Positions 627 to 48,392 of a DNA stretch of 64,000 nucleotides are shown in pieces (positions within the stretch are counted from its first letter, which is position 1; every line of letters starts with the position of its first letter). Origin of the DNA: Pseudovirgaria hyperparasitica (Eukaryota); assembly GCA_010093815.1 (NCBI GenBank), contig ML996582.1. One strand, 5' to 3'. A program made the translations under genes and the position numbers. The notes beneath the pieces are model-generated. The model had not been told where the DNA came from, searched no databases, and worked only from the letters and a program-made list of their open reading frames with translations.

Positions 627-3359
627 TCAGAATCGAATGTCAAAGTCCCGCATCGCGACCGCAATCTGCGATCCTATCGAATATACAGCATCTTCGTCCC
701 GTCGATAAGTTGCATCAAGTGCATGGTCGACAGCCCAATCTCCGTTCTCCAATGCTCGTGGCGAGCCAGCGTACGTAACGTCGTCTATCTTGCGCAGTCG
801 TCGTAGGACAAGATCACGCTGAGAGTCGGCGCTGGTCCATACATGAGACAGCTCCGTGATGCAAGCAAGGTTGGCCTCGACAGCCCTCTTGAGGCCCGGG
901 AGTGTGTCACGGGACCCGCCAGCGGTGAGCACGTCCACGGCCGCTAGCAAGCTGTAGCCGAGAAAAGGAACTGCAGAGAACGAACTTGGACGAGGAGAGC
1001 CAATGCGGTGAGAGTCTGCGTGTTGAAGATGGTGAGCAATATTGAAGAGTTGCTTCGCGTGCACGAGGCTTGCTTGAATATTCCTTTCCAGTTGAGTCGT
1101 AAGCGCACCGACTCTGACGTGTCGATTCAACCTAATAAAAGCAGTGTTGTACAAGCTGTGTAACGACAGGAATGATCCCGCGCAGTCTCGGTGGATACTA
1201 CTCGTCAAGGCGTCGGGACTGTAACGTAAATCGTGCGGTAATTGAGCGTGCCATGCCTGAAGTTTGTGGTACATGCTGTTGTAGTGGTGCTCGTAGTAGT
1301 CAAGGTACGCAGCATTGACAGTCTTATTCAAGGCTCGGTCTGTCATTGAGAAGACTTGACCCCAAATGGCCGATACCTGGACGAGATAGGCCATTGTGCT
1401 CAGTGGAAGCTCGGTAGGAGTGCCGATGAGATCGTAGTCGAAGATTGGAGGATCCTGTGTGCGCTTCATGTTGTATTCCTGCTCTGTACATGGTAGACGA
1501 ACGAAGGTGTCCTCGAGGTTGATGTTGCATTTAGTGCCACCGCAGAAGCCGTTGTAGCGGTCCATCAAAAAGCCAGACCAGAACGTTCGCCTGCGGCATT
1601 CAAGCAGCTTCTCCCGGTCCAGCCCGTAAACATGGTCGCTGGGGTCTGCAATGTAGCAGATCACCTTCTCCGAGTTGAACCCTAGTGCGCTAATGCATCC
1701 CAGCGCCAGTCTGCAGTGATTCCATGACGCAGTTGTTTCACCACGTGCAAAGCAATACATGCCCACCAGAAGCCTGGCATGGCATATCTGCAACGTCAGC
1801 TCACTGAACAGCGTTTTTAGCGCATACTCGGCGATTTCGTGCAACTCCTTGCCGTAAGCATGTCGGTCTGGGATGTGAGAGAACAAGGATCCGATGGCGA
1901 GCATGCTGTACAACACCATACGATCTTGTGGAGTCTTCGAGCGGTTATGTTGAACCCAATGTACGATTGTATCTCTCGGAAAGAGGCAGTATGTTGCGGA
2001 GTTGAAGTGCGTAAAGTAGTGGTCAAGTAGTTCGAGAGTTACGGCTGGACTGATTTCGTAGGGATCCGTCAGCCAGCGATCTGCTTTTTCGTTCTCCGAC
2101 ATGACATGTCTCGCTGAATGGAGTGAGTTGTTGGTCGGAACGTGCTTGAGCTCAGGATCAGTGCCTGTGTGGTAACCAACGTTACCAGCACTTTGGTTCC
2201 ATCGTATTTCGTGGCGTGGAGGCGAGGCACCTTGCGGCTGTCTCGGCGCCAAATCGTGATCGCTTGTGCGTCGCATCTTCGTCGGTCTCGACCACTCTGG
2301 GGGAGCAGCGTTTGTGCTTACAACGGATGGATACGTCCCAGGGCTGCTGTGTGCAGTTCCGGCGGCTCTGTGAAGGGGAGAACTAGTTTCTGAACGATGA
2401 GACTGAGAACGAGACGACTGCTGCTCGGTTGCTCCTCTGATGCAAAGTTAGCATGCCATGTAGACGTACAGATGTCTGCTAGGCGAGGAACCGGCTTACC
2501 CTTTACACGTTCGTTGAGACTTGGTGCACTGGGCACATTTGGGGAAGCCAGGATCACACTTGATCTTCTTTTCTCGACAAGTAAGACAGGCTTGGGCGAG
2601 TCGTTTCCGTGGTTTACCGGCCTTTGTGATACCCCAGCAAGGATTGACTGCCTCTCCATCGATTTCAGCAGGAACGGTGTTACCATTGTCGTACTTCCAA
2701 TGCTCATTGCCATGCTCATCATACACTTTACAGACGACCCTCGGAGCAAAATCCGGTGCACGCGGTACACTTTCAGCCCGTCGCTTTACACCGGCATGCA
2801 CGCTTTCGGATGTATCGTGAATGGGATGTGGAGCAACGGAAGTGGCGCGCGGCGACTGGTGATGCAGCTGAGGGGCATGAGATAGATGAGCCTGGTGAGG
2901 AAAGTAAGTGTCATGTGGTATTGGTATGTCTGGATCTGATCGCCTCCCAAGATATGGAGTTCCACGGCCGTCCAACGATTGCTGCCTGCTGAGTGTTGAG
3001 GATGATAGATGTCGTGGTGGTGAGTTGTGAACGGAGGTGGCAGAGTCGTGGAACGAAGAAGCTGGCGCCGGAGCTGGAGCTGGAGCTGGTACGTGATGAG
3101 ATAGCGGACGTTGCGCTTCAGATATGGGTGGTGTAAGTATTTGAGAAATGCCAGGTAATTGGAGCTTTGTGTCCTTTGCAGGTGCGGCTGGGTCGGTGGG
3201 AGTTGCACGCTGAGTGGGATTCCAGTGTGGCATTTCGTATTGGGATTCTGATGGCGACGGTAGGCCTGGAAGTCGAGGATGCGAAGAGACGGCGTGCTGA
3301 CCAGGCCACGAAGAAATTCCAGGATGCATCGGTCGAGGCTGAGGGCCAGCAAGAGACAT
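627..3359 (-). CDS. Zn(II)2Cys6 binuclear-cluster transcription factor with fungal-specific TF (middle homology) domain, ~889 aa
   Basis: Exons 3359-2500 and 2436-627. Intron 2499-2437 (GTAAGC..GCTAAC..TCAG) joins the two ORFs in frame. C6 motif CLTCREKKIKCDPGFPKCAQCTKSQRTC; fungal_trans signature ECRRRTFWSGFLMDRY; Pro/Ser-rich N-terminus. Confidence 0.93.
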
Positions 3360-3533
3360 GGTGTATGTAAAAGTTGGCCGGTGGCAACGGCGACAGTAAA
3401 GGAAATCGGAAATGGACGACTAGTTATTAGCTGGACAGCATCGGAGGACAGAAAAGCAGTGCAGCAGGAGTGGGATGCCGGATAGTTTTGATGCAGCACG
3501 GGCACCAGCAGCAATCCAGAGTAGTATGAGTGA

Positions 3534-3591
3534 GTTGGTGGTGGTGGTGGTGGTGGTGAGTAGTAGTAGTGGATGAGTGGTAGTAGGAAGA

Positions 3592-3648
<57 letters not shown>
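3534..3648. repeat. (GTG)n and (TAG)n microsatellites upstream of the TF start
   Basis: Direct reading; long perfect (TAG)n run at ~3594-3648. Confidence 0.95.
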
Positions 3649-6035
3649 AATCGTGGTAAGTAGGCCGTGCACTCTCTCACTTGCAGTTGTCTCCAAGCCG
3701 GAGAGTAGAGGAGCAGGGAGCAAGGAGCAGGGAGTAGACCAAGCCGTCGTGTCGAGAGAATTGGAAAGAGAAGAGAGTCGCAGGATGGAGCGTTGGCGGG
3801 ATGACGATCAGGCGCGACGAAAATAGATGTATGCAGGGCTGATGATGGATGGTGACAAAACGTGGTCCGCCGGGGGGCTGCAACTCACAAGCGGTCCAGT
3901 CGAAATTGTCGATTACTTGCAGATGGTGTGTGTGTGGATCAGATGAAACGCTGAAACGCTGAAACCTGACAGGGTGGTGAAAGGAGCGACGACAACGACA
4001 AGAACGACAACGACAACGTTGCGAAGAATGACAGGAAGGATTGACGCCCTGGACGTTTCTTGTGTGTAGCGATCGATGGTAACAGGACCGGGGGGGTTCG
4101 CGGACTGGACAGGGACAGATGAATAGAGTTGGTCGGGACGTCGGCCAAGAAGAGATCCTATCTATGTTTGGTTTCCGGCAAAGTGGGAGATGCAGTAGTG
4201 CGAGCCTGGAGGAAGAGACACGAGTCGATGCGGGTTGGCGGCGCCACAAGGATGGTGGTGGCCGTGTGGACGTTTGCAACCTTTGTGTATATATCGAGTG
4301 TGGTTGAGGCGAGCAGAGGAGGAAGAATAAGAAGAGGAAGAGGAGGAGGGAGGGGGGAAAGAGAAGAAGAAGAAGAGTGGATAGGGTTGCGTAGAGACAG
4401 AGATACTTTATCGGGGTCGGGGAACAGAAGAGACGAGTGCGTGTGTGTGTGCAGATGGAGAGGATAAACAGAATAGGATATGGACTAATTAGATCCGAGT
4501 CCAAGCGTCTCTCTCACTCTCACACACTCTTCTTTGTCGTTGCAGCGGAGTGCAAGTAAGTGGAAGCGCGTGCTCAGGTACGTAGATGGTTTCTTTAATA
4601 AAGAACAAGAGAAGTAGAGGAAGAAGAAGAAGAAGCCAGCAACAAAACGTCAGATGGGACCCGTAGACAACTACCATGATACCTATCCATCAGCATGATG
4701 ATGATGATAATGATGATGTACAACCCCCCTCCCCCCCCCCTCCTCTGTCTCTCTCTCTCTTATAAGGCTCGATTTAGACAAGAGATTCGACAAGTATTAG
4801 AGCGAATGTTCATAAGGGAAGACATAGTATGACAGGGGTCGTGACAGATTTTGGGGGGGGAGGGGGAGGGGGGGCCCTACTACTACTACCTACGCAGACG
4901 GGACACGGACACATTTCAAGCTTCCGTGAGGCCAACTAAACTTCACAGTTCCCTTGCCGGTATCTGGAATCTGGAATCAGAGACGCACGTTCTGAAACTA
5001 TATTATACACAGTATACATGGTATATAGTATCCTATACATCATACTAGTATTCTTGGTCGTCTTGGCCCAGGAGCTGTCCTAAGGCTTCCTCCTCGTTTG
5101 AGGTATGCCTGAGGTTATTTATACACCGTCACCGATGATGCACGCACAGGGCTTCGTGGCCAGTGGAATGAATGCTTCTGCATTTATTACGGCGACTCAC
5201 AAATTGCTGCAGGTCTCCACGGACTGAGCAGGTTTGAGAGGCGCTCCATGCGCCCAAGCAGAGCGTGATGCAGCATCATTTTACACGTACAGGTAGGTAT
5301 ATACTGTATGTTGGAGTAATTAGGACCTAGGTACTCGGGTAGGTTAACAATGGCCAGACGACTACGACGTACACGATTAGAATAATGTTGGACTACTGTA
5401 TCTGCCAGCCCAGTGATTAATCGCAGTTGCTATAGTGTCGGTGCAAGGACTGGACCTGAATCGGCCGTAAATGCCATGCGTTGACACAGACAGTAGATCC
5501 CGCCGTCTTGTCTGCACGGCTTCGGTGTCATGTCAAGAGGAGAGTAGAGAGGCTTGCATGTACATACAGGATGTACTACGGCATCTCGGAGCACACTTGC
5601 CGTCACAGGAGGCTGCCCCGGTCGATCAGATGCAGATGCAGATGGGCGTCGGTGCTTGTCGGTGGGTGATGCGGTGCTGGTCTTCTTCTTTTTTTTTTTG
5701 CAGAGTCATGTTATTCAAAGTTCGTTCGTCGCGGGATCTGAAGACGGAGCTATGCCAGATCCAATAGACAGATCGGTCAAGCAGGGAAGAGAATGGATGG
5801 ATGGCTAGGGACAAGGTTGCCAGCCAGCTGTGCCAGGGTAGAGAGAGAGGCCTCGATGCTTGTCCTGGTCATTGGAATTCTACCTGGGGATCTGCCGTTG
5901 TAGTCCGGCACCATCGAAACGGAGATGCAGTCCGTCTTGTGCCATAATTACTATCCATCTATAATGAATGGCTGTTAGTTGGGATGGTGCGCCGGTGCAG
6001 AGGTCGGCAGCGAGTACCGATGGATGGATCACACT

Positions 6036-12581: not shown

Positions 12582-13497
12582 CTAGATTCTTTAGAGGAAA
12601 TTGAAGAGATAGTAGATGGTAGTAAGAGAAAGGAAAGGAGTAGTGGTAGTAGCTTAATATAAACTAAACATGAGCTTACTTATCTAGTAGACATATCTCT
12701 AGGTACATGTCCTCTCTTCTCTCTGCTCTCTTCTCTCTTCTCTCTTCTCTGGAGAGAAATCCAGTAGCCCTATCATTGTCACTTTATCCATTCCACGGCT
12801 CGCAACAACCACAACAGTCGACGATGACAACCGAAGTCAAGTTTACCAATTTTTGTGGGTGGCCATGACGTCCATCGCAGCTCTTTCCACGAGTATATTG
12901 AGTGTGGGCTGCGTCCCTGTCCTGACTCTTCTGATATGGAGGTCGAGACTAAAGACCAGACAGGAGAGGTTTGACGAAATCAATTCCTTTGTAGGTCTAG
13001 AGTCTTGTTTGACGTACGGAAAGCGCGTGTTTCGGGATTACTACAGCTTGGAATAGCTTTCCAGCAGGGCGACACGTGGTGGTAGTGTTTCTGCTGATCG
13101 ATCCGACAGACACCAGTGGATCAGGTTGCCCACCTATGGACCACTTGGGAAGGAGAGATCCTGGCGAAGACGCAGAGATGTATATGTGCCTCGCCGTGGT
13201 TCAATTGTGTTGTGTGTATGGGCGTGAGAGAAGTAGAGCAGGTCTAGGGCAAAGATGGACGGAGCGTCCGTGATATAATTGTTTTCTTGCCACTTCTTTT
13301 AGGCATAGCCTGCATAGCCTCCAATGTCTGAGCACAGGACACGGGGCAATAAGGATTACTTACCGTGAAATCAATGTCCGGCGGGGGATTGCTGGCTATT
13401 AGACGGAGATCAAAGGCTTGACAAGGAGGCGCACTACGAGAAGATTCCGCGTCAGGGTCGAGAATTAAGATTAATACACACAGAACAAAATGTCGAC

Positions 13498-14412
13498 TTA
13501 CAATGCGTATTTCTCACTGCATCGCCATGCCTGTTCAAGGTGTCGGACCTCTTCCATATCAACGGTCACCGAGGACATAGTCGCAATAAGTCGCTCGACA
13601 GCCTGATTGAATGCAAAATCCTGCGGGATGCCCTTGCGCTGTGAACAGAGGTCGAAAGATACGGGAAAAAACCCGGCCGTCTCCCAATCAAGAAGGCAGA
13701 TCGACTCATCTTGCTGCCAGAGTATGTTGCGCGGTGCGATGTCACGGTGGCAAATCACAAACTGACCGGGGTCAAAATTGAATCGATAGGTGGTATCCCA
13801 CTCAAGGAGGCGAGATTGGAACCAGGCATTCATTTGGTTGACGTCTCCCATAAAATCAACGCCAGTCTCAGGCAGAGGGCAATCGAAACATTTCCCCTCG
13901 CCCGCGAGGTTGCCCGGCGTTGTGCGTTTGAAAGAATACAGATGAGCGAGCGCTCTTGCGAGAATGGCGTACTGCTTCGGGGTCATGGCGTTTGCAGGAA
14001 TGCAAACACCCTCAATGTACTCCATTACCAGGTAACCCTTTCCATCGTGCTTGAAATATCGATAGACACGCGGTACTCGACAAACTTCAGGGTTGACCTT
14101 GTTGAATATGAAGCGTTGATTGTCTGCCTCAGCCTGGCTGACGATGAGTTTGACTATGGCGTTGGAAAGGATGCGTACTACGCGACTTGGAATTCCTAGG
14201 GAATGGTCGTGAGGAGGCCTTCGGCAGGCTTTAACGATCTCTGAATTGGAGAGATGACGGGTTGGGTCATATGCCTCAGAGGCTTGAGAAATCTCAGAAA
14301 TCTCACGAGCGTGCAGCTGCTCGGCTAAGTTTTCACCAACTGCGTCATCAGACTGTCGAACGCAGCTTTTGCACCCTTCCGCTTGAGACCTCGTTTCTGT
14401 GGTTAAGACCAT
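13498..14412 (-). CDS. Aminoglycoside-phosphotransferase (APH)/protein-kinase-like family protein
   Basis: Motifs VPRVYRYF, YLVMEYIEG, HRDIAPRNILW (catalytic loop) and LLDWETAG. The ORF stop overlaps a likely donor GTAAGT at 13501, with CTGAC branch and TAG acceptor at 13434, so a short extra 3' exon is possible. Confidence 0.88.
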   Translation of the reverse strand: MVLTTETRSQAEGCKSCVRQSDDAVGENLAEQLHAREISEISQASEAYDPTRHLSNSEIVKACRRPPHDHSLGIPSRVVRILSNAIVKLIVSQAEADNQRFIFNKVNPEVCRVPRVYRYFKHDGKGYLVMEYIEGVCIPANAMTPKQYAILARALAHLYSFKRTTPGNLAGEGKCFDCPLPETGVDFMGDVNQMNAWFQSRLLEWDTTYRFNFDPGQFVICHRDIAPRNILWQQDESICLLDWETAGFFPVSFDLCSQRKGIPQDFAFNQAVERLIATMSSVTVDMEEVRHLEQAWRCSEKYAL

Positions 14413-15411
14413 GGAGTGGTCGACTCTCTGTCTAAACTCAGCCCAAATTGGTTCAACCGAGGGCGAGGCTGGAAGACATGCCTGAGGCTTCTTAGGGTGA
14501 ACAGGTCGATAGCGGGCTTCTGCGGGCCAGGCCGGTGATGCTGTGGCGTGCTGTTAGAACAGACTACAAAGAGACGTGCGAGTCCTTACTATGATCTTGT
14601 GGTGTATACTGGGGATCATCCAAAGATCGCTCGTCGGAGTAGTGTATATCTGGTTGATTGAATGGCGCTTCGCGCTTTACAGGGGGGCACATTTTTCTGT
14701 TGCTTGACGTGCAGGCTTTAATGTGCCAGTCGAATTTTCATGCATTTCAGGGATCAAGACATCGCTAAGGTGTTGTCGCTTCCAAGAATATGGTTGTGTA
14801 GTACAGGGCGTAGGGCGAGTAGATCTGACTTCGCCACTTTGCTTCGATATATAGCTCGTGCCTCCAAGCGAGGTACCAAGCAATATAATAACATAATCAG
14901 ATAAGCCATATAACATATCATACACACACATACGTATTATGCTCATTTCTTTCATCTAGATATGATGTACATTCTTGAAATTCTTACGGGCTTTTTTCAT
15001 AGTAGAGCTGTTCAGAGTTTTCTATAGTCTTTCTAGTCATATATTACTATACTAATAAGTCTGCGATCAACATTCTAGATACATTTTTACTTACTTGTTA
15101 TCCCTTCATTAAAACGACGTTGTTACATACGTAGCTTACTTACCTATTCGTTGGACGCCTAGTTTTTCTATTTCCCAGAACGCCTCCGGGCTGAGCCTTG
15201 TAGACTACCTTGTAGCATTCCAGGTGATCGAAGCACCGGGGTATGTCACGGTGGCAACGTGGCGGGCAATTTACACCTCTGGGCTACTGGTAGTATGGAC
15301 TGTAGTCATTGTAGATGCACCGGTATTATGAAATTGCCTTGTACTATCTGTACAACTGGGCACTGCCCGTTCCGCGGCTTCATATCCCCTGCAGCTCTTT
15401 GGGCCTGCCAT

Positions 15412-16530
15412 TCATGGCCTAAGAACCCAATCCCTATTGATCCATACATAAGCATTATTGCGCCTCGATACATAGTATTGCCCATCCCAGTCCGAATCCG
15501 CAGGACCAGTTCCTGAGACCCTTGCTGTGGCAGATGGCGACATGTTAGACGCTGAAAAAGCAGTTGAATACTGCGATGGCCTGGTAGACGTCTGATACGA
15601 AGTCTGATACGAAGTCTGATACGCTGGAGAATTGGTAGACGTCTGATACGGAGTCTGATACGAAGTCTGATACGAAGTCTGATACGCTGGAGAATTGGTA
15701 GACGTCTGATACGGAGTCTGATACGTTGGCGACGTGATAGACGTCTGGAACGCAGTTGGGTACACTGGCGACGTGATCGACGCCGAATACATACTCTGAT
15801 GCACTGGTGATGTGATAGCCGTTGGAGAGACATGCGAATAGGATGGCGACGTGGTCGACCTCGAGGAAGCGTATAATGGTGATGTGATAGCCGTTGGAGA
15901 GACATGCGAATAGGATGGCGACGTGGTCGACCTCGAGGAAGCGTATAATGGTGATGTGGTGGCCGTGGGAGGGTTCAGATTAGGCAGTGGCGGGTTGGCA
16001 GTTATAGTGCGAACAACTCTGCCCTCCACGTACACTTTAATCTCACCACTTGTTGCATCGACGAAGACAGATCCTCGATCATCGTGGTCATTGCCCGTTG
16101 GTACATTGTAAGTCTCTGTTAGGTCCACGGAAAGACCTTTATCACTTAGCTTTCTTTCCATGATCTGTTGCTGTTCGAGGAGTGCCACGCTAGACTTGTA
16201 GATAGCGCAAATAACCAGAGAGCTAGAGTCTCCCAGAGCCTTTCGATGTTTTTTGTATTTGGACAACATGCGATCCATAAATGATTCCACATGGTTGTTT
16301 CCAGCGTATGGGTCGTCTTCACTGCTGTCATCTGGCCGAGGTGCTACGTGCCCTAGCATTGCGCCTTTCGAAGAGACAATGACAATAACGGAGCATGAAC
16401 CGAGATTATCTGTCCCAATTCCAGGTATCTTGGAGAAAATTACGAGGCCAAAGTCGTTCATGGTGACTGCTTTTGCCAGTTCTATCGATACCACCGTACG
16501 AAATCTGCTCATTTCGGGAGGGGTGTCCAT
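15412..16530 (-). CDS. Uncharacterised protein, 372 aa: N-terminal CheD/CNF1/NTAN1-like Cys-His putative deamidase domain plus Ser/Thr/Tyr tandem-repeat tail
   Basis: Intronless ATG-initiated ORF. GTDNLGSCSVIVIVSSKGAMLGHVAP resembles the CheD LGSC...H catalytic motif. The fold assignment is by eye. Confidence 0.7.
   Translation of the reverse strand: MDTPPEMSRFRTVVSIELAKAVTMNDFGLVIFSKIPGIGTDNLGSCSVIVIVSSKGAMLGHVAPRPDDSSEDDPYAGNNHVESFMDRMLSKYKKHRKALGDSSSLVICAIYKSSVALLEQQQIMERKLSDKGLSVDLTETYNVPTGNDHDDRGSVFVDATSGEIKVYVEGRVVRTITANPPLPNLNPPTATTSPLYASSRSTTSPSYSHVSPTAITSPLYASSRSTTSPSYSHVSPTAITSPVHQSMYSASITSPVYPTAFQTSITSPTYQTPYQTSTNSPAYQTSYQTSYQTPYQTSTNSPAYQTSYQTSYQTSTRPSQYSTAFSASNMSPSATARVSGTGPADSDWDGQYYVSRRNNAYVWINRDWVLRP
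15585..15958 (-). repeat. Coding tandem repeats: 72-bp units (start 15805, 15877, partial 15949) and 12-bp YQT[S/P] units
   Basis: ITSPLYASSRSTTSPSYSHVSPTA occurs twice; gtctgatacg[a/g]a repeats at 15590-15725. Confidence 0.92.
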
Positions 16531-16932
16531 TTCGATAGAAGAAGTTGCTGCTTGTGGGTAAAGATCTTGAGAGAATTTCTTGAAACTATTTCAGGCTCAG
16601 GTTGACGCTGTGGGAAGTGCAAAGCTTTTATGTCGAGAGGCTTGTAGACTTGATTGAACCATCAGACCCTTGTCGTGGTCTGCGCCTTTTGGATATCACG
16701 CTGGTAATGCTGGAATGTACAACGCATAAGGCAACCATCGGACCTTCCTTGATGCTGATCTGATGGGAATGTTCCGCTGCTATCCTGTCCTGTGTAACTT
16801 GCCGCACTTTGCACCGTATGGAATGCACAGTGCTGCCTAGGACAACCTACTAGACATTCAAACAATGAAAAAATTGTCATCAGTCAATGTGAAACGAACA
16901 TGATCATGTGTCAGGCAAGATACACATATATC

Positions 16933-17865
16933 TCACATTTTCTTCCGGTTTTCTGTGCCATAAAGCTGGCACTCCTCTGCTTCCTCAAGAATGAGGGCAA
17001 CGTCATTTAAGTTATCCATCTCAGCCCAATATCGTGGTGTTTTACTCTTCGTGTCCAGTTTCAAAGGGTCAGCACCCACCTCTAACAGATACTTAACGAT
17101 GTCCACCTTTCCAAACTCTGCAGCCCGATGGAGTGGTGTACCGAGGCCAAACCCTATACGCGCCCGAAATCCTTTGGGGTCATTCGCATACTTCACCTCG
17201 TTGATTGGTACTCCTAGCTCTACGAGTCGACGAACCACCTCTAGAGCGTCAGGTTTATCCCTGATAACGGCCCAATGCAGGAGTTGTCCAAAGTTCTGGT
17301 TTGCCCCACGAGAGAACAGATAGTCGATAAGTTCCAGTGGAGCTCTCAAAATAGCATCGGACATAGGTGTCAAGTCATAGTCGCAGCGGCTGTTAGGATC
17401 GGCACCATGGTCAAGAAGCCACCGAACCATTTCCCAATCACCCTGACTTATGGGAATGCTGGGGGACCGTAAGTAAAGATCATAGTTATAAGCGTGGAAA
17501 AGTAACCTCAACGCCGAAGCCTCACCCCGGCCTCTCGGCGTGTTTATATCCCACCCAAGCCCAAGGAAGAGATTCAGAACCTTGTATTTTCGGGAACGTA
17601 CAGCGGCTACAAACAGAAAACTTGAAAGTTCCGAAATCTTCTCATCAAGCAGGTATTGAATGAGTTCTATGTTCTGCTTTGCCATGGCGACAAGTAGCGA
17701 GTCGAACAACCAGCCGGGACGAGGCATATTTCCCCCAGATTTCGGCCACCCAGGCGTGTGTAGTAGACGCTGGACTTGTTCTTTAACACCATCGATATCT
17801 CCTCGACAAGCGGCCTCGTAACACAGCCTGACTTCCACGGGCCTTGTCAATGTTGGCGAAGACAT
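16933..17865 (-). CDS. Ankyrin-repeat protein
   Basis: GTPLHRAAEFGKVDIVKYLLEVGADP, WLLDHGADPN and LLHWAV ankyrin repeats. Probable stop-free 48-nt intron at 17506-17459 (GTTACT..CCCAG). Confidence 0.92.
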   Translation of the reverse strand: MSSPTLTRPVEVRLCYEAACRGDIDGVKEQVQRLLHTPGWPKSGGNMPRPGWLFDSLLVAMAKQNIELIQYLLDEKISELSSFLFVAAVRSRKYKVLNLFLGLGWDINTPRGRGEASALRLLFHAYNYDLYLRSPSIPISQGDWEMVRWLLDHGADPNSRCDYDLTPMSDAILRAPLELIDYLFSRGANQNFGQLLHWAVIRDKPDALEVVRRLVELGVPINEVKYANDPKGFRARIGFGLGTPLHRAAEFGKVDIVKYLLEVGADPLKLDTKSKTPRYWAEMDNLNDVALILEEAEECQLYGTENRKKM

Positions 17866-18106: not shown

Positions 18107-18277
18107 CAGCGGGTTCAAAAAGTGACTGAACGCCGATGTGTCTCTGCGCGCAGATCGCAACATTAAAACAAAGATAATATTTAAGAGATTAATCTATAGA
18201 TTACTAGTGGATTTAAGTATAGGAATGCTAGCATGGTTTTGGTAGTTGCCGATGATCGGTGACTTTTGAACCCACTG
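18107..18277. mobile_element. Degenerate 171-bp MITE with Tc1/impala (mimp)-like terminal inverted repeats
   Basis: Left end CAGCGGGTTCAAAAAGTGACTGA; reverse complement of right end CAGTGGGTTCAAAAGTCACCGA; AT-rich non-coding core. No TA target-site duplication is visible. Confidence 0.6.
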
Positions 18278-18279
18278 AT

Positions 18280-18490
18280 GTATTATCTTTTATCATTATC
18301 TTTCATTAGCTCTATTTTATACATATAGTTAGTTATTACTAGGTATAAAGATAGAAGAGAGAGCTATAGCTCGAAATAATACTAGTTTTATATATATATA
18401 TATATATCATGAGTATAAATATAGTAGAGAGAGATAAGAACATAGAAATGTAGGAGATTTATTCTGTAGAGAGAGTGCAAACATAAAGAC
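18280..18490. other. AT/TpA-rich patch with (TA)n, possibly a RIP-degenerated repeat remnant
   Basis: Sharp drop in GC with many TA dinucleotides compared with the flanks. A similar patch lies at ~14880-15170. Confidence 0.45.
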
Positions 18491-41072: not shown

Positions 41073-44000
41073 ATGGCGGAGCGTGAAGATATTGACATTT
41101 CAGCTACTAACCACTCAAATGGCCTTGTGGCACAACAAGCTTCAGTCTTCGATACCGAGGTGAAGATCGAGCCTGGTATCAATTCGGTTCGTCCTGACAA
41201 TCTGGAGTCGACTGAACCGGCCCATACTGCAGCCCCAATCGCAAGTCACTATTCGCCTATCATCCCCTCGCGCAAAACTACGGTGAATTCGCAAGGCAGG
41301 AAACGTAAAGGTACGTTGATCTACAACGTCGATCCGACATTCACTAATCACACGAAGTTCCTTCCATGGACTCAGATAGTGCGGTCAGTGGAAGCGAAGA
41401 TGAGAGCGACAACGACAGCGATTATGATGACGGGGATGAAGCCATCACTTACAACCCAGAAAGCCAAGAACTACCCAGAATTCCCACACTGCACCCGGCA
41501 TTCAAATTAGCGGAGCAGTTGGCAGTGGATATCGTGGCTCCCTTCAAGGAATTAATCCAAAGCAGTGGCTGTGAAGACGATGAGACGAGACTACTTATGA
41601 GGGAAATCAGTGCCTGCGAGGATGTGAGGTATGGTGAAGCTGTCAAGATAGGCATTGTCGGAGACAGTGGTGTGGGCAAGTCACATAATTCGATTGTCAA
41701 GATGAATTGCTTATACAGGGGCAGGAAAATCCTCTCTCATAAACTCACTGCTAGGCTGCGTCAGCTTGACACCACAGGTTTATTGAACTGCTACCTCTCG
41801 CTACATGGTACTAACACAACTTTCAGGCCGATGACGGAGAAGCTTGCACATACGTGGTACAAGAATTTGTCCCAGTCCCACCAAAGCAAAAGGCTCCATT
41901 CGCTGCAGAAATCTACTGGAAAGGAAGGAAGATGCGGGAATCTGACCTGAAAAGCCATATTGATAGCTATTATCAGTTTTACAGGTGCAAAAAGGAAGCC
42001 ATCGACGACGAGCGAGGTGAATCTGAAGAGGTTGAAGCTCGTACAGCAAAAGAAGTGTTCCTTGCCCTTTTCCAGGACAAGGATGAATTCGCTGATGAGG
42101 AGTCGATGAAAGACTACCTGAGTACAGTAGACCCAACAGATTATGGCCAAGTTCTATCTCAGATGATCAAGTGGACGGATCAAGTCATCGCGAAATTGGG
42201 TTGTGATGGAGAGCCTTTGATAATCGAGGCATCGAATCTGGATGCGTTGTCAGAAAATATCTTACCTTACACGAAGACAGTCACAGACTATCTTGTGGGA
42301 AGTCAACTCAAATGCTCACCATGGTCAATGGTCCGACTTGTCAAGTATGCCACATAATATCCTTGCTCCTTCAGTTGCTGACATTCGTTGCAGGATAGGC
42401 GTACGATCTCCACTCCTAGCAGCTGGAGTCACAATTGCCGACCTTCCAGGTATCTCGCAATCAGATTGACCACAAATGTTCTCTAATCATTCCCAGGTAT
42501 TTCCGATATAAATCGGACCCGTGTTAAGACCACACAAGCTTACCTGAAAAGCTGTGACTACTTGATTATAGTTGCCGATATCAAGAGAGCCGAGACCGAC
42601 ACGGCCACCCACTCCAACCTTATTGACGCTCATAGGAGGAGACGTGGAAAAAGTGTTATCATGGTGTGCACTCGCTCCGATGACATAGGAGCAAAGCAAA
42701 ATATCCCAATGTCTCCACAAGAGGAGGAGCAAGCAGAATATCTAAAGCGTCAGGAGATGTCAACCACGGCTAAGTTGAAAGAGATTGGTAAGAACATACG
42801 CGCTAGTCGTGGAGATCGAGACTTGGTGAATTCGCTCTCCAGGAAAAGGGAGAAGCTGACAGTAAAGAGCAAGATGTACAAAGCTCGACAAACCCAGGAA
42901 CGTATCCTCATTCGAAACAGAAAGGTTTCTACAGGTTTAAAGAAGAAGTATCTTGAGCTTACCAAAGATGAATATCCCCTACCAGTCTTCTGTGTGAGCA
43001 ACAAATTATACACAGCTCACTTGATCGGTATTCCTCGCGATGAGCCCGCGATTCTGACAGTGGAGAACACGAATATTCCAAGGATGGTTGAGTATATATA
43101 CAACCTTCCAGCGACACGAAAGTTAGCTGCGCTGGAACACCATTGCCAAGTGACCCTGTGCACGCTATTCTGTACAGTAGAGATGGCCTCCACGATCACC
43201 AAAATCCAGAGAAAGGAGCATCTCGAAAGATTGATTCTTCAGTCCCAACAGGCGGCTCTTATCGAGGTAGATACTATTTTTAGCGACTTCAACCAGAGAG
43301 AGGTATGCGCTCTGGTCTCCAAGTTGACAAACTTTGAACAGCCGTGGATAAAGCGAGCTGCGGTGAAATGTGGCAGGTGGGAGAGTTTTGGTGCAGCTTC
43401 TCACCGCGCCTTGTGCCGAAAATATGGGATTCACAAAACGAAGAAGCTGGGCCCAAAGGACCTCAACAAGGAGCTTTTGATGGTAGTTTCGGATGATGCA
43501 GAGGTACCATTCAACAGCTTGATCAATGCATGCGAAGGACTACTTGCGACTCTTGACAGCACACTGGAGACAGTCCTAGAGAAGATGCGCTGTACCATAA
43601 ACGAGGATCAAGCGTCGACACTTACACCAGTTCAGGCTTTCTTTGGAAATCTGAGACGACGCCAGACTGAACTTCAGGTGCGTTGCATGTATGCAATCAG
43701 GGCTATGAGGAAGTCTCTCGGCACTGTCAAGATCGATGCGCTTCAAGACAGCTCCGACGCATCTTATCTCGCAACAGCAATGAAGAAGGTATACGAGCGT
43801 GCCGCCGCGATTGGCTTTAGAGATTGCGAAAAGGGTGTTACTATACACAGGAAACGATGCGACGTCTTGAGCAATGACATATGCCAGCCTGATGGAATCT
43901 TCATGTTTGTGAAAGACCAGACTATGGTCCATTGTGAAGCTGTGGTCGAAACGCGGAGAGTAGCTCTCCAGAAGGATATTGAAACAATCTTTGCCAGTAT

Positions 44001-44157
44001 CCAGCACGACTTTAGTTCAATTTGCGCTACTGATGTTGAGGAATCCCCAGCCTCCAAAGAGCTTCAGAGGAAGCTTCGTGAACTGGTGCCCAAAGCAAGA
44101 GAGGAGTTCATTTCGCCGGTCAAAGGCTATCTTGAAGAATGCCGCAAGGTCAAGTGA
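41073..44157 (+). CDS. Dynamin-like P-loop GTPase A (SLIP-GC/NUGGC-like), ~947 aa
   Basis: Six exons (introns 41311-41357, 41676-41724 [GC-AG], 41778-41826, 42345-42393, 42450-42496) give a 2844-nt in-frame CDS. G1 GDSGVGKSSLINSLL, G2 ACT, G3 DLPG, G4 TRSD, PVFCVSN, long helical C-terminus. Confidence 0.85.
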
Positions 44158-45165: not shown

Positions 45166-48100
45166 ATGATTGACAGTCAGTGTGAGCTAGTTCAAGCGAC
45201 TTCAACCACTCGGCCTGTCGATGTGGAGAGATTCGACTCTGTGTTGTTAGATCAGACTATGCTGGACACACGGCCCCGGATGACGAGCGAACAATCCTTG
45301 CTAGGCCATTCGAGACCCATGTACCCAGAATCAACCACAATGAACCCTGATCAGAACAACAGCCTGAAGCGGAAAGGTATTTAACAGTGGAGGTTCTTCA
45401 AGCAAGTGCTAAGTTCTGTAGGGTGCCAGATAGACATTGAAAGTACAGGGAACAACGACGGAGATCTCGAATCAGACGACTCTGACGATGAGTGCAATGC
45501 AAGTTACGTACCAGACAGAGTAGAACTCCCGCAGGCGCCAAACTACCATCCAAGCTTTGCAAAAGCGATGGAAAGTCTGAACAAAGTACCGGAACACTTC
45601 CTGAATGCCATCAAGAGCAGTAGCCCTGACGGCGAGGAAGGCTCATTGCTCACGAAGAGAGTCTTGGATGACTCAAAGATCATCTTTCCCAGTAGCCGAC
45701 GTATTGGCTTGCTTGGTCGCAGTGGCGCTGGTACTCAGGACTTCACTCTCTCGTGCATCCTCTTGCTGACTCGTCATAGGTAAATCGTCGCTTATCAACT
45801 CGATTCTAGGGAAAGAAGTCGCTATGATAGTGCGTGTATGTTAAAAGCCATGATTATCCAGCTAACATTGTCCAGGGGTCGAGTGGTGGAGCATGCACCC
45901 CATTCCCCATCGAGTATCATCCATTGCGCCACAATCAAGTGCAGGCATTTCAAGCGGAGGTTGAATACCTCACAAAGTCTGAGGGCACCAAGATGGTCAA
46001 AGGATGGGCGCGGAACGCGTACCAGTACCTCGATTCGAAGGAGAATAAGGCCTCAGATCAAGACAAAGGCGGTGATGATCAGGGATTTGAAAAGGACAAG
46101 CTGGGTAGCACCGCATTGAACTCTCTGCTTACAGTGTTTGGTCATCACGCGGAATTCGCTACGGAAAAATCCGCCAAGGTGTTTCTCAAGTCACAAAAGT
46201 CTGGCGACGACCAAGCGCTGCGGAAAATCATCACGGAATGGGTATCTTCTATTTACCAGCAGTTGATGTCAGACAAAAATCCCAGGAGTCTCTATGCATC
46301 CGATTCTGAAAACCTGGCCAATCAACTCCAGTCTTTGATTGCTTACGGCCGTTCATGTGAGTGCAAAGACCAGGCTGGGAAGTACTGGCCGTTCGTTCAC
46401 GTAGTAAGGTACATAGAAAGCTCCTGTAGTCCGTGTCGTAGTCTGGGCTAACTGTACAGGGTATCATTTGATTCAAAGATTCTACAAGAGGGTATGATCA
46501 TTGTCGACCTCCCAGGTACGCCAGGTCAACGGGATGCGCAAGACGTAGTCGACTACTAACGGAAATCCTTCAGGTCTATCTGATATCAACATGACGCGGA
46601 CGAATGCAACAAAAGCGTACCTGGGCAAATGCGACAAACTTATAGTCGTTGGCAAAATAGACCGCATTGTGGATGATGAGGAAGTTCAGAGATATCTCAT
46701 TACAGCACATCACCATTTGTCGCGAACGAAAAGGGGTGTGATGTGTGTTCCCACTGCCACGGATGATTTCTGCGCAGGAACAAACTTCGCATTCGATATG
46801 AAGCTGAATGACGACCAAGTGGTTGAGCTAAAGCTAGCCGACATCCAGATTCAGTATCTAACAGACAAGCATACAGAGATGCTCACATCTTTACAGCCAG
46901 GCAAGCTTCACCGGCGGGAACTCAAACTACACAAAGATCGACTCAAGAAAGTCCAGTAAGTGAATCATTTCCTGGGCTAGGTGAGAATTTCACTGACAAA
47001 TCAGATCACAAATAGCGAAGGCCAAATTGAGGTGTGTGTGCCAATGACCAGCATCTCGGATAGAGTACTTATCATTCATGTAGTAAAGAGGAGTATCAGA
47101 TCACGATCCGAAACGACAGGGTGGTATCAGAGCTGATTGCAAAGTATGCAAGATTGGCAAATGGGCAGGATCTTTTGGTATTTCCGGTTTCTAATCGCAT
47201 ATACGCGGAATACCTGAAGGCATTATGGGAACGCAATTCGCCCGTCAAATTAACTCCAACAGGAACCGGCGTGCCAGCTCTTCGCAAATTCCTGTACGGG
47301 ATCGCGTCTGCTGGCAAATTTGAGGCACTAAATCATCAATGCTTTGTGTTGGGCAATTTGATAAGGACATGCGAGCTCTCATCGTCCCTTTCGAAGATCA
47401 AGAAGCAAGAGAGACTGGAAGTTCTCGTCAAAGAAAGCAAAGAAAAGTCGTTGGCAGAGCTCCATGACCGGTTCAAGTTGCTACGAGAGAATGAGGTCTC
47501 GGGCCTATGTAAAGTGATGAAGACTGAAGACAGCGCTATGCGGGCGTGTGCGCAAGCTCTCTTGGATACGTGGGCTAAATTGAAGGCGCCCACCCATGCA
47601 GCCTGGTGTCGCCACTGGGGAGCTTGGAAGCTCGATGGCGATCAGAAGGACTGGAATGTCTACCTCCAGGAACCCATCAAGAAGGTACTGGAGACACAGT
47701 TTGATACTTTGGAATCGGCTTGCCTTGACGGCTCGGACTTCCTTGGCTCCACGCTCTCACAGATCCTCATCGGATATGATGGAATGATCCAGCAAATCCG
47801 AAATCACCCGTCCACCGTCATGAAAGAATCTCTCGCGCGTTTCCTGTACAACACCGAGCAGCGAGAAGCAGGTATCCACAACATGATTGATAGCACACTC
47901 AACGTGCTGCGCCACTCCCTGGAGACAATTGAGCAGAGAACCTTCCTCTCCAGTGCGGACTCCTACTTCACGGAATTCATCAACCCGATCTATGAGGAAT
48001 GCCAAAACGCCTATGCAACTCCAGGGGTCAAGAAGTCTCCAAAGGGTGCAAAAGTAGTCGTAAAGGAGGTGAAGGCAAAGAACAAGCACCAAGTCCGTTG

Positions 48101-48392
48101 TGAGATTCTCACAAGCAGGATCTGCTCGCACAATACACTCTACCACCACATATGCACCAAAAGACTACAGCCCGCACTCCAGGCAGCTGTGCAAACAGCC
48201 GAGGAGACGATGAAGACCAAGATAGAGTCTTTATATGCTGATATATACCAGGATTTGCAATTCATATTCGAAAAGGACGACGACAACGACCCTGAAACGA
48301 TCAAGCTCCGACAGGCCGTTCGGGATGTGCTCGGTGTTGCTAGCAGCGATCTGGACAACGCTGTGGCGTTCTTGAAGGAATGCAAGCCTTGA
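45166..48392 (+). CDS. Dynamin-like P-loop GTPase B (SLIP-GC/NUGGC-like), paralog of A, ~958 aa
   Basis: Eight exons (introns 45377-45421, 45731-45779, 45830-45875, 46409-46459, 46516-46573, 46956-47004, 47032-47083) give a 2877-nt in-frame CDS. G1 GRSGAGKSSLINSIL, ACT, DLPG, G4-position TATD, VFPVSN, TGVPALR. Confidence 0.85.

Follow-up and report, generated by a model that had tools for sequence, protein, structure and literature searches.

A CheD/CNF1-fold domain of filamentous ascomycetes is linked to an ankyrin-repeat gene in a possible toxin-antidote pair

Does a fungus make a deamidase of the CheD/CNF1 kind for its own cytoplasm, and what would such an enzyme do there? The question is raised by a gene (P0001) in a 64,000-nucleotide stretch of Pseudovirgaria hyperparasitica DNA (contig ML996582.1 of assembly GCA_010093815.1), called the window below. 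The gene (15412..16530, minus strand) is a single-exon open reading frame (ORF) that runs from an ATG at 16530 to a stop at 15412 and encodes 372 amino acids, comprising a catalytic domain, a linker of S/T/P/Y-rich repeats, and a 30-residue W/Y-rich end module. According to the original prediction, made from the DNA letters alone, an orphan N-terminal domain carries the Cys-His signature of CheD, CNF1, and NTAN1. The motif on which this was based, a Cys after LGS with a His 15 residues later, was confirmed in the ORF (residues 38 to 64, with Cys46 and His61).

The predicted structure bears out the proposed fold. For the domain (residues 1 to 177; 16000..16530, minus strand) the model had a predicted local distance difference test score (pLDDT) of 94.5 and a predicted template modelling score (pTM) of 0.90, with strands at residues 47 to 52 and 56 to 62. 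In the Foldseek check against the PDB that had been suggested together with the prediction, CheD was the best match (E = 4e-7), followed by NTAN1 (5e-6) and CNF1 (4e-4), and all 11 matches at E ≤ 0.001 were CheD, NTAN1, or CNF (CNF1/CNFy) structures. Structural comparison by VIA likewise placed CheD (Z 11.7, root mean square deviation 4.0, 138 aligned) and NTAN1 (Z 10.6, root mean square deviation 3.9, 141 aligned) at the top, followed by YlmD (7.9), YfiH (7.7), BLF1 (7.4), CNFy (7.3 and 7.1), and CNF1 (6.9), after which Z fell to 4.5; the top eight rows are thus all members of the CNF1/YfiH-like superfamily. The aligned ranges (model residues 16 to 174 with CheD -1 to 157, and 5 to 170 with NTAN1 35 to 193) fit the expected register.

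The catalytic triads given for CheD (Thr21/Cys27/His44) and NTAN1 (Ser69/Cys75/His92) in PMC7022378 align with Thr40, Cys46, and His61 of the fungal protein, in the same order and with the same offset of six residues before the Cys. Cys46 (16393..16395, minus strand), the presumed nucleophile, lies in an L-x-x-C loop resembling the L-S-G-C loop described for CNF1 and BLF1 (PMC8960835), His61 (16348..16350, minus strand), the presumed general base, lies on the second strand of the hairpin after Cys46, and Thr40 (16411..16413, minus strand) would be the third triad residue. The domain thus combines an alpha-beta-beta sandwich with a Cys in an L-x-x-C loop, a His 12 to 17 residues later on the next strand, and a Ser/Thr six residues before the Cys, which are the features of the superfamily. 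As Foldseek, VIA, the triad order, and the Cys loop agree, the fold named in the original prediction was right, and we regard the assignment of the CNF1/CheD fold and its catalytic triad as nearly certain. In a viral structure library five giant-virus proteins matched the model at E ≤ 1e-4 with 10 to 15% identity; they are CheD/NTAN1-like, and one is annotated as CheD.

The predicted activity calls for more caution. Cys-His deamidation chemistry has been described for BLF1 (PMC8960835), and protein glutamine deamidation is favored here because it is the commonest chemistry among the closest structural matches. The substrate class must be left wide because YfiH/YlmD proteins share the fold and, by their PDB entry titles, were solved with UDP-N-acetylmuramic acid (UDP-MurNAc) or inosine. 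Of the proposed protein glutamine/asparagine deamidase, the fold and the Cys-His assignment therefore stand, and a protein Gln/Asn substrate is the likeliest, though not an established, one.

Far from being an orphan, the domain is matched at E ≤ 0.001 by 237 clusters at 50% identity among all cluster representatives scanned, although Pfam holds no family for it, either in the query or across the 130 members aligned here. This alignment (A1) of 130 rows consists of the query and 129 of the best 150 of the 237 matching clusters and other homologs, with obvious fragments excluded. The residues of the putative active site are highly conserved in it (Thr40 in 120/130, Leu43 in 127/130, Cys46 in 123/130, and His61 in 127/130), the family loop being L-x-[GSA]-C; Cys46 and His61 occur together in 122 members, in 121 of them with a spacing of 15, which we take to be also the spacing from Cys to His881 in CNF1. 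Other Cys and His positions of the protein, used as controls, are conserved much less often (Cys108 74/130, His80 63/130, His95 25/130, and His149 14/130), which argues that the Cys-His motif exceeds chance. Profile searches of the 130 members gave no match to PF03975 (CheD) at E ≤ 0.1, and Pfam gave no match to PF14736 (NTAN1) in the query or these members. PADLOC returned stray single matches only, sequence searches of the PDB gave no match, and pattern scans of prokaryote genomes and viral contigs, which reach close relatives only, found no relative. A choline-binding repeat was matched in one of the 130 members (E 2e-4).

Named members come from Pseudovirgaria, Alternaria, Pyrenophora, Stemphylium, Dothidotthia, Lizonia, Paraphaeosphaeria, Aspergillus, Penicilliopsis, Coniochaeta, Chlorociboria, and Peltigera, genera that we take to cover five classes of filamentous ascomycetes. 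Among 114 near-full-length members, 68 are a bare domain and 46 carry a tail, and 34 of the 46 long tails finish in a W/Y-rich stretch of one of several unrelated kinds. No signal peptide is visible in P0001, whose domain begins within the first residues, and a crude hydrophobicity screen flagged an export-like start in only 3 of the 114, in line with the earlier view that the enzyme acts inside the cell. In the P. hyperparasitica genome, no further intact enzyme paralog was found with four different seeds, such counts being lower bounds. Enzyme and partner gene (see below) are under purifying selection, with ratios of nonsynonymous to synonymous divergence (dN/dS) of 0.16 to 0.43 where dS is unsaturated (five copies compared). 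Copies from different genera can be 91 to 95% identical (P0206/P0216, P0211/P0213, and P0219/P0224/P0227), and two copies in one Alternaria strain are just 61 to 68% identical; near-identity across genera beside divergence within one strain is a hint of horizontal spread, drawn from sequences among which no housekeeping gene was compared.

The original prediction treated the gene as standing alone and so overlooked, besides the large family, an accompanying ankyrin-repeat gene. This candidate antidote gene (16933..17865, minus strand), recognized by Pfam Ank matches, lies upstream of the enzyme gene and encodes 294 residues after splicing (P0163). Its 48-nucleotide GT-AG intron (17459..17506, minus strand) is skipped in contigs of both runs described below, and the 16 residues that it would add are missing from the public protein. 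From the stop codon of the ankyrin gene to the start codon of the enzyme gene there is a gap of 402 nucleotides (16531..16932). The ankyrin model (pLDDT 92.5) shows an ordinary ankyrin fold, and the fold search returned only generic ankyrins and designed ankyrin repeat proteins.

When metagenome contigs were scanned with the enzyme alignment, by a single pattern scan that was derived from the nearest subfamily, 11 loci were obtained, and the same ankyrin family stood beside the enzyme in all 11, within 2 kb of each of the 14 enzyme copies. Since three locus pairs are near-identical (L003/4, L006/7, and L008/12), these represent eight independent loci with 10 independent enzyme copies, of which nine have the ankyrin gene within 1 kb and the tenth has it at 2 kb. 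The layout is divergent in L003/4, L005, L009, L010, and L011. The genes are in tandem in L006/7 and L008/12, where the ankyrin gene is downstream, and in the window, where it is upstream; L013 and a second, distant pair of L008/12 are convergent. The other neighbors differ between loci and include APH-like kinases, DUF7924 proteins, a chitinase, and other ankyrins. With three intact-looking ankyrin genes of the partner family in the 35.4-Mb P. hyperparasitica genome, adjacency by chance would amount to about 4e-4 per gene. Enzyme and ankyrin identifiers are also consecutive in four of eight named records checked (Alternaria tenuissima g11499/g11500 and g13315/g13316, Pyrenophora tritici-repentis KAI0619220/1, and P. 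teres CAA9961596/7). Divergence of the enzyme is correlated with that of the ankyrin protein (rho 0.91, 14 pairs; rho 0.61, p 0.009, in the 8 pairs left once four closely related pairs and the two most divergent ones were removed). We consider a genuine functional tie between the two genes highly probable. A complex prediction for the enzyme domain and the ankyrin protein, which used no alignments, is neutral on binding (score 0.01, mark 0.34).

The pair appears to decay unevenly. Among readable surroundings (those of the 14 copies in the 11 loci, of the window gene, and of a relic, a sample skewed to close relatives), no enzyme without a nearby ankyrin gene was found. In the P. hyperparasitica genome, the two other ankyrin genes stand alone, with no enzyme gene in the roughly 4.5 kb to each side of them, and in L009, L010, L011, and L012 the enzyme is interrupted by stops or frameshifts, whereas the adjoining ankyrin is unbroken over its matched part. 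This asymmetry of lone ankyrins and enzyme-first decay fits the expectation for a toxin-antidote pair, within limits set by assembly error and contig ends. A decayed relic with pieces of an enzyme and an ankyrin gene, head to head, lies on another contig of the same genome (C25, L024:4299-5134).

Both genes are apparently transcribed. Contigs from two public runs of one sample, with splicing read from contig joints, were used; neither run is recorded as RNA, and both appear to be RNA because their contigs skip four intron-like stretches near the gene. In each run one spliced contig covers 15929 to about 17900, that is, the ankyrin gene, the gap, and the enzyme domain. Contigs bridging both genes are a hint of co-transcription or overlapping untranslated regions, short of proving a single transcript. 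The stretch from 15010 to 15612 has no contig cover and carries no evidential weight.

The reading that we favor is a two-gene toxin-antidote module of filamentous ascomycetes. The fold, the residue conservation, the purifying selection, the tight linkage in several orientations, and the apparent transcription are what we observe; activity, substrate class, toxicity, direct binding, ankyrin inhibition, and biological setting are what we infer. The 175-residue domain would be a Cys-His-Thr amidohydrolase whose Cys46, activated by a His61 that Thr40 orients, attacks a side-chain amide, most likely that of a glutamine in a conserved cytoplasmic protein. Deamidation would harm the cell unless the adjoining ankyrin protein keeps the enzyme inactive by binding to it. 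The exchangeable W/Y-rich tails may aim or localize the enzyme, and a divergent or tandem layout would keep the pair co-expressed. Hyphal fusion, meiosis, or nuclear competition could provide the setting in which the pair serves as an addiction, drive, or non-self module. In our judgment there is about an even chance that the enzyme, as a Cys-His amidohydrolase of the cytoplasm that probably deamidates protein, acts as a toxin with an ankyrin antidote. We hold more tentatively, with odds somewhat short of even, the wider proposal of a widespread mobile deamidase system in which hundreds of toxins with interchangeable W/Y-rich targeting tails, each co-expressed with its own ankyrin antidote (through a shared promoter or through a single antidote-first transcript, as the window contigs hint), would act in drive, addiction, or non-self killing.

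Several observations weigh against a toxin-antidote pair. Of the eight named records, those of Stemphylium, Paraphaeosphaeria, and Lizonia show no ankyrin partner among the matches listed, and for that of Dothidotthia the sole link is an ankyrin on a contig of equal length. Joint inheritance would by itself make the divergences correlate. As the scan was built on the closest subfamily, just three independent distant copies (26 to 35% identity) test the linkage family-wide. The ankyrin is roughly as conserved as the enzyme, without the rapid diversification typical of many conflict genes. The breaks in the enzyme genes may be assembly errors (L012 is nearly the same as the intact L008 but frameshifted), and contig ends truncate the ankyrins of L009 and L011. 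The surroundings of the pair gave no sign of transposon ends: there are no terminal repeats or target duplication, and the flanks are single-copy. Finally, one lone ankyrin gene of the P. hyperparasitica genome, on C4, has a Peptidase_C12 gene at a distance of about 0.7 kb, which suggests that other enzymes, too, may pair with the ankyrin family. The two genes on C4 (L023) are convergent, the ankyrin at 3020-3847 (plus strand) and the UCH-type Peptidase_C12 gene at 4538-5532 (minus strand); this genome has six matches to the Peptidase_C12 family, more than the two that would be expected. Short AT-rich tracts flank the window pair (14900-15170 and 18170-18470), with weak values resembling repeat-induced point mutation, and both are single-copy in the genome.

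The linkage data also count for a rival view, that the ankyrin protein might be a sensor, activator, or substrate adaptor that switches the enzyme on, for example after non-self recognition, or delivers it to its target. Fungal sensor-effector two-gene clusters (PMC12881547) and ankyrin-bearing NOD-like receptors (NLRs; PMC11138114) are known. However, neither Pfam nor the fold search revealed a NACHT or other signalling domain in the ankyrin protein, which is conserved and not hypervariable, and the lone ankyrins and enzyme-first decay suit an antidote better, if not exclusively; we therefore judge a sensor or adaptor unlikely, while keeping it in view. Mere historical linkage, with both genes as passengers of one old mobile cassette, would agree with the hint of mobility in the cross-genus and within-strain identities. 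Yet the two genes have stayed within 1 kb of each other although their order and orientation changed at least three times and all other neighbors were exchanged, and they have done so down to 26% enzyme identity; we consider this explanation quite improbable.

Two further readings concern the enzyme itself. The third and fourth structural matches, YlmD and YfiH, with their inosine and UDP-MurNAc ligands, would suit a harmless small-molecule amidohydrolase acting on a nucleoside or metabolite and placed beside the ankyrin gene for co-regulation. Yet the domain is of CheD size (about 175 residues) and nearer to CheD and NTAN1, none of its neighbors from locus to locus is a recurring metabolic gene, and the variable W/Y-rich tails suggest macromolecular targets; a metabolic role appears improbable to us, if slightly less so than that of mere passengers. 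NTAN1, as the second structural match and the nearest named cluster in the Atlas (0.84, a lead only), could point to an N-terminal Asn/Gln amidase with a housekeeping role in the N-degron pathway. The model, however, aligns to only residues 35 to 193 of the 305 of NTAN1, and pseudogenes, multiple copies, and swapped tails are unlike a housekeeping gene, which makes a fungal NTAN1 counterpart very improbable.

Comparison with known systems places the toxin-antidote reading in context. CheD of Thermotoga maritima (PDB 2F9Z; PF03975), a chemoreceptor glutamine deamidase, is similar in size and shares the Thr six residues before the Cys and the Cys-His pair on a hairpin. The fungal family differs from it in its low identity (16 to 17%), in a His at Cys+15 instead of Cys+17, in its ankyrin neighbor, and in its variable tails; no chemotaxis genes were found among the long ORFs of the window. 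Human NTAN1 (PDB 6A0E; PF14736), an N-terminal asparagine amidohydrolase, shares the core fold and the Ser/Thr-Cys-His order, whereas the fungal family (9 to 13% identity) lacks the appended C-terminal specificity region and is patchy and multi-copy, with pseudogenes. The toxins CNF1/CNFy and BLF1 share the fold (Z 6.9 to 7.4), and the plant-pathogen effectors HopAF1, AvrXv3 (PF28166), and XopAK (NF041406) were also compared. The XopAK profile gave weak matches in 13 of 52 members (E 0.003 to 0.1) and none for the query, and Atlas clusters of NTAN1 (0.84), AvrXv3 (0.81), and CheD scored between 0.80 and 0.84; both results are leads only. Unlike CNF1-type toxins and effectors, the fungal enzyme is smaller, has no signal peptide or delivery domain, and is made in a eukaryote's own cytoplasm, and whereas host-directed toxins need no inhibitor, it is linked to a candidate one.

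The fungal toxin-antidote and cell-death sets (Spok, NLR-effector, and protease-gasdermin clusters) are likewise patchy, multi-copy, and cytoplasmic, with a tightly linked partner and decayed copies. Spok, unlike the two-gene pair, is a single protein with nuclease and kinase domains (PMC12693581). The stem "deamid" is absent from the accessible text of a 2025 review of fungal cell death (PMC12881547) and of an Aspergillus fumigatus het paper (PMC11138114). Stand-alone ankyrins tied to an enzyme are also represented by the Imm-ank inhibitors of bacterial polymorphic toxin systems (PMC3482391) and by Legionella AnkJ, reported to inhibit Ceg14 (PMC13439196); these are bacterial, guard a nuclease or an ATPase, and are likened to the fungal protein through the generic ankyrin repeat.

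In the accessible parts of the literature, CNF1-fold deamidases are bacterial toxins or effectors, CheD, and NTAN1, and no account was found there of the fungal family or of an enzyme-ankyrin pair, which both are apparently undescribed. Whatever its substrate, the family extends the superfamily by hundreds of unnamed fungal members, and because the ankyrin partner is fixed, a single yeast experiment could test the biology. A true toxin-antidote pair would mean a new killing chemistry and a new type of antidote for fungal drive and non-self systems; it would also give structural work a natural inhibitor of a CNF1-fold enzyme and might throw light on the retention of accessory DNA in fungal genomes.

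The C-terminal part of the gene under study required a choice between two protein models. A public record with an identical domain is a hypothetical protein of P. hyperparasitica with 311 residues (P0002), which departs from the ORF after residue 245 and finishes in a different frame. This model was rejected in favor of the 372-residue form, because RNA-like contigs of the two runs cross its supposed intron (15696-15834) without a gap and because the last 30 residues of the longer form match a module that is present twice in an Alternaria homolog. This W/Y-rich end module (15415..15504, minus strand), identified by its match to the homolog P0003, occurs in one to three copies in relatives and in all nine proteins chosen for display, and is replaced elsewhere in the family by other W/Y-rich modules; the Atlas gave no usable match for it.

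Between domain and end module lies a low-complexity linker (15505..15999, minus strand) that was enlarged through tandem duplication of 72- and 63-nucleotide units. Its eight SPxY and two TSPSYS motifs give it a loose likeness to the RNA polymerase II tail. The linker lacks the exact heptad that we take to be that of the C-terminal domain of RNA polymerase II, and mimicry of this domain was rejected as a family trait, as repeated SPxY is limited to the window copy among the 114 near-full-length members.

Some neighboring genes deserve mention. Just downstream of the enzyme gene lies an APH-like kinase gene (window 13000-14872, minus strand; PF01636, E 5e-14), with introns at 13434-13501, 14428-14481, and 14541-14589 seen in contigs. 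In L008/L012, too, the pair is followed by an APH-like gene, which gave no tblastn match to the window kinase. In L006 (6465-10594) a GH18 chitinase with a chitin-binding domain adjoins the pair, and LysM-like genes were noted by eye (no Pfam match in the piece scanned), a layout that recalls killer-toxin-like clusters. Farther along the window, two ORFs bearing DUF7605 lie 3 kb apart (42487-44157 and 47064-48392, plus strand).
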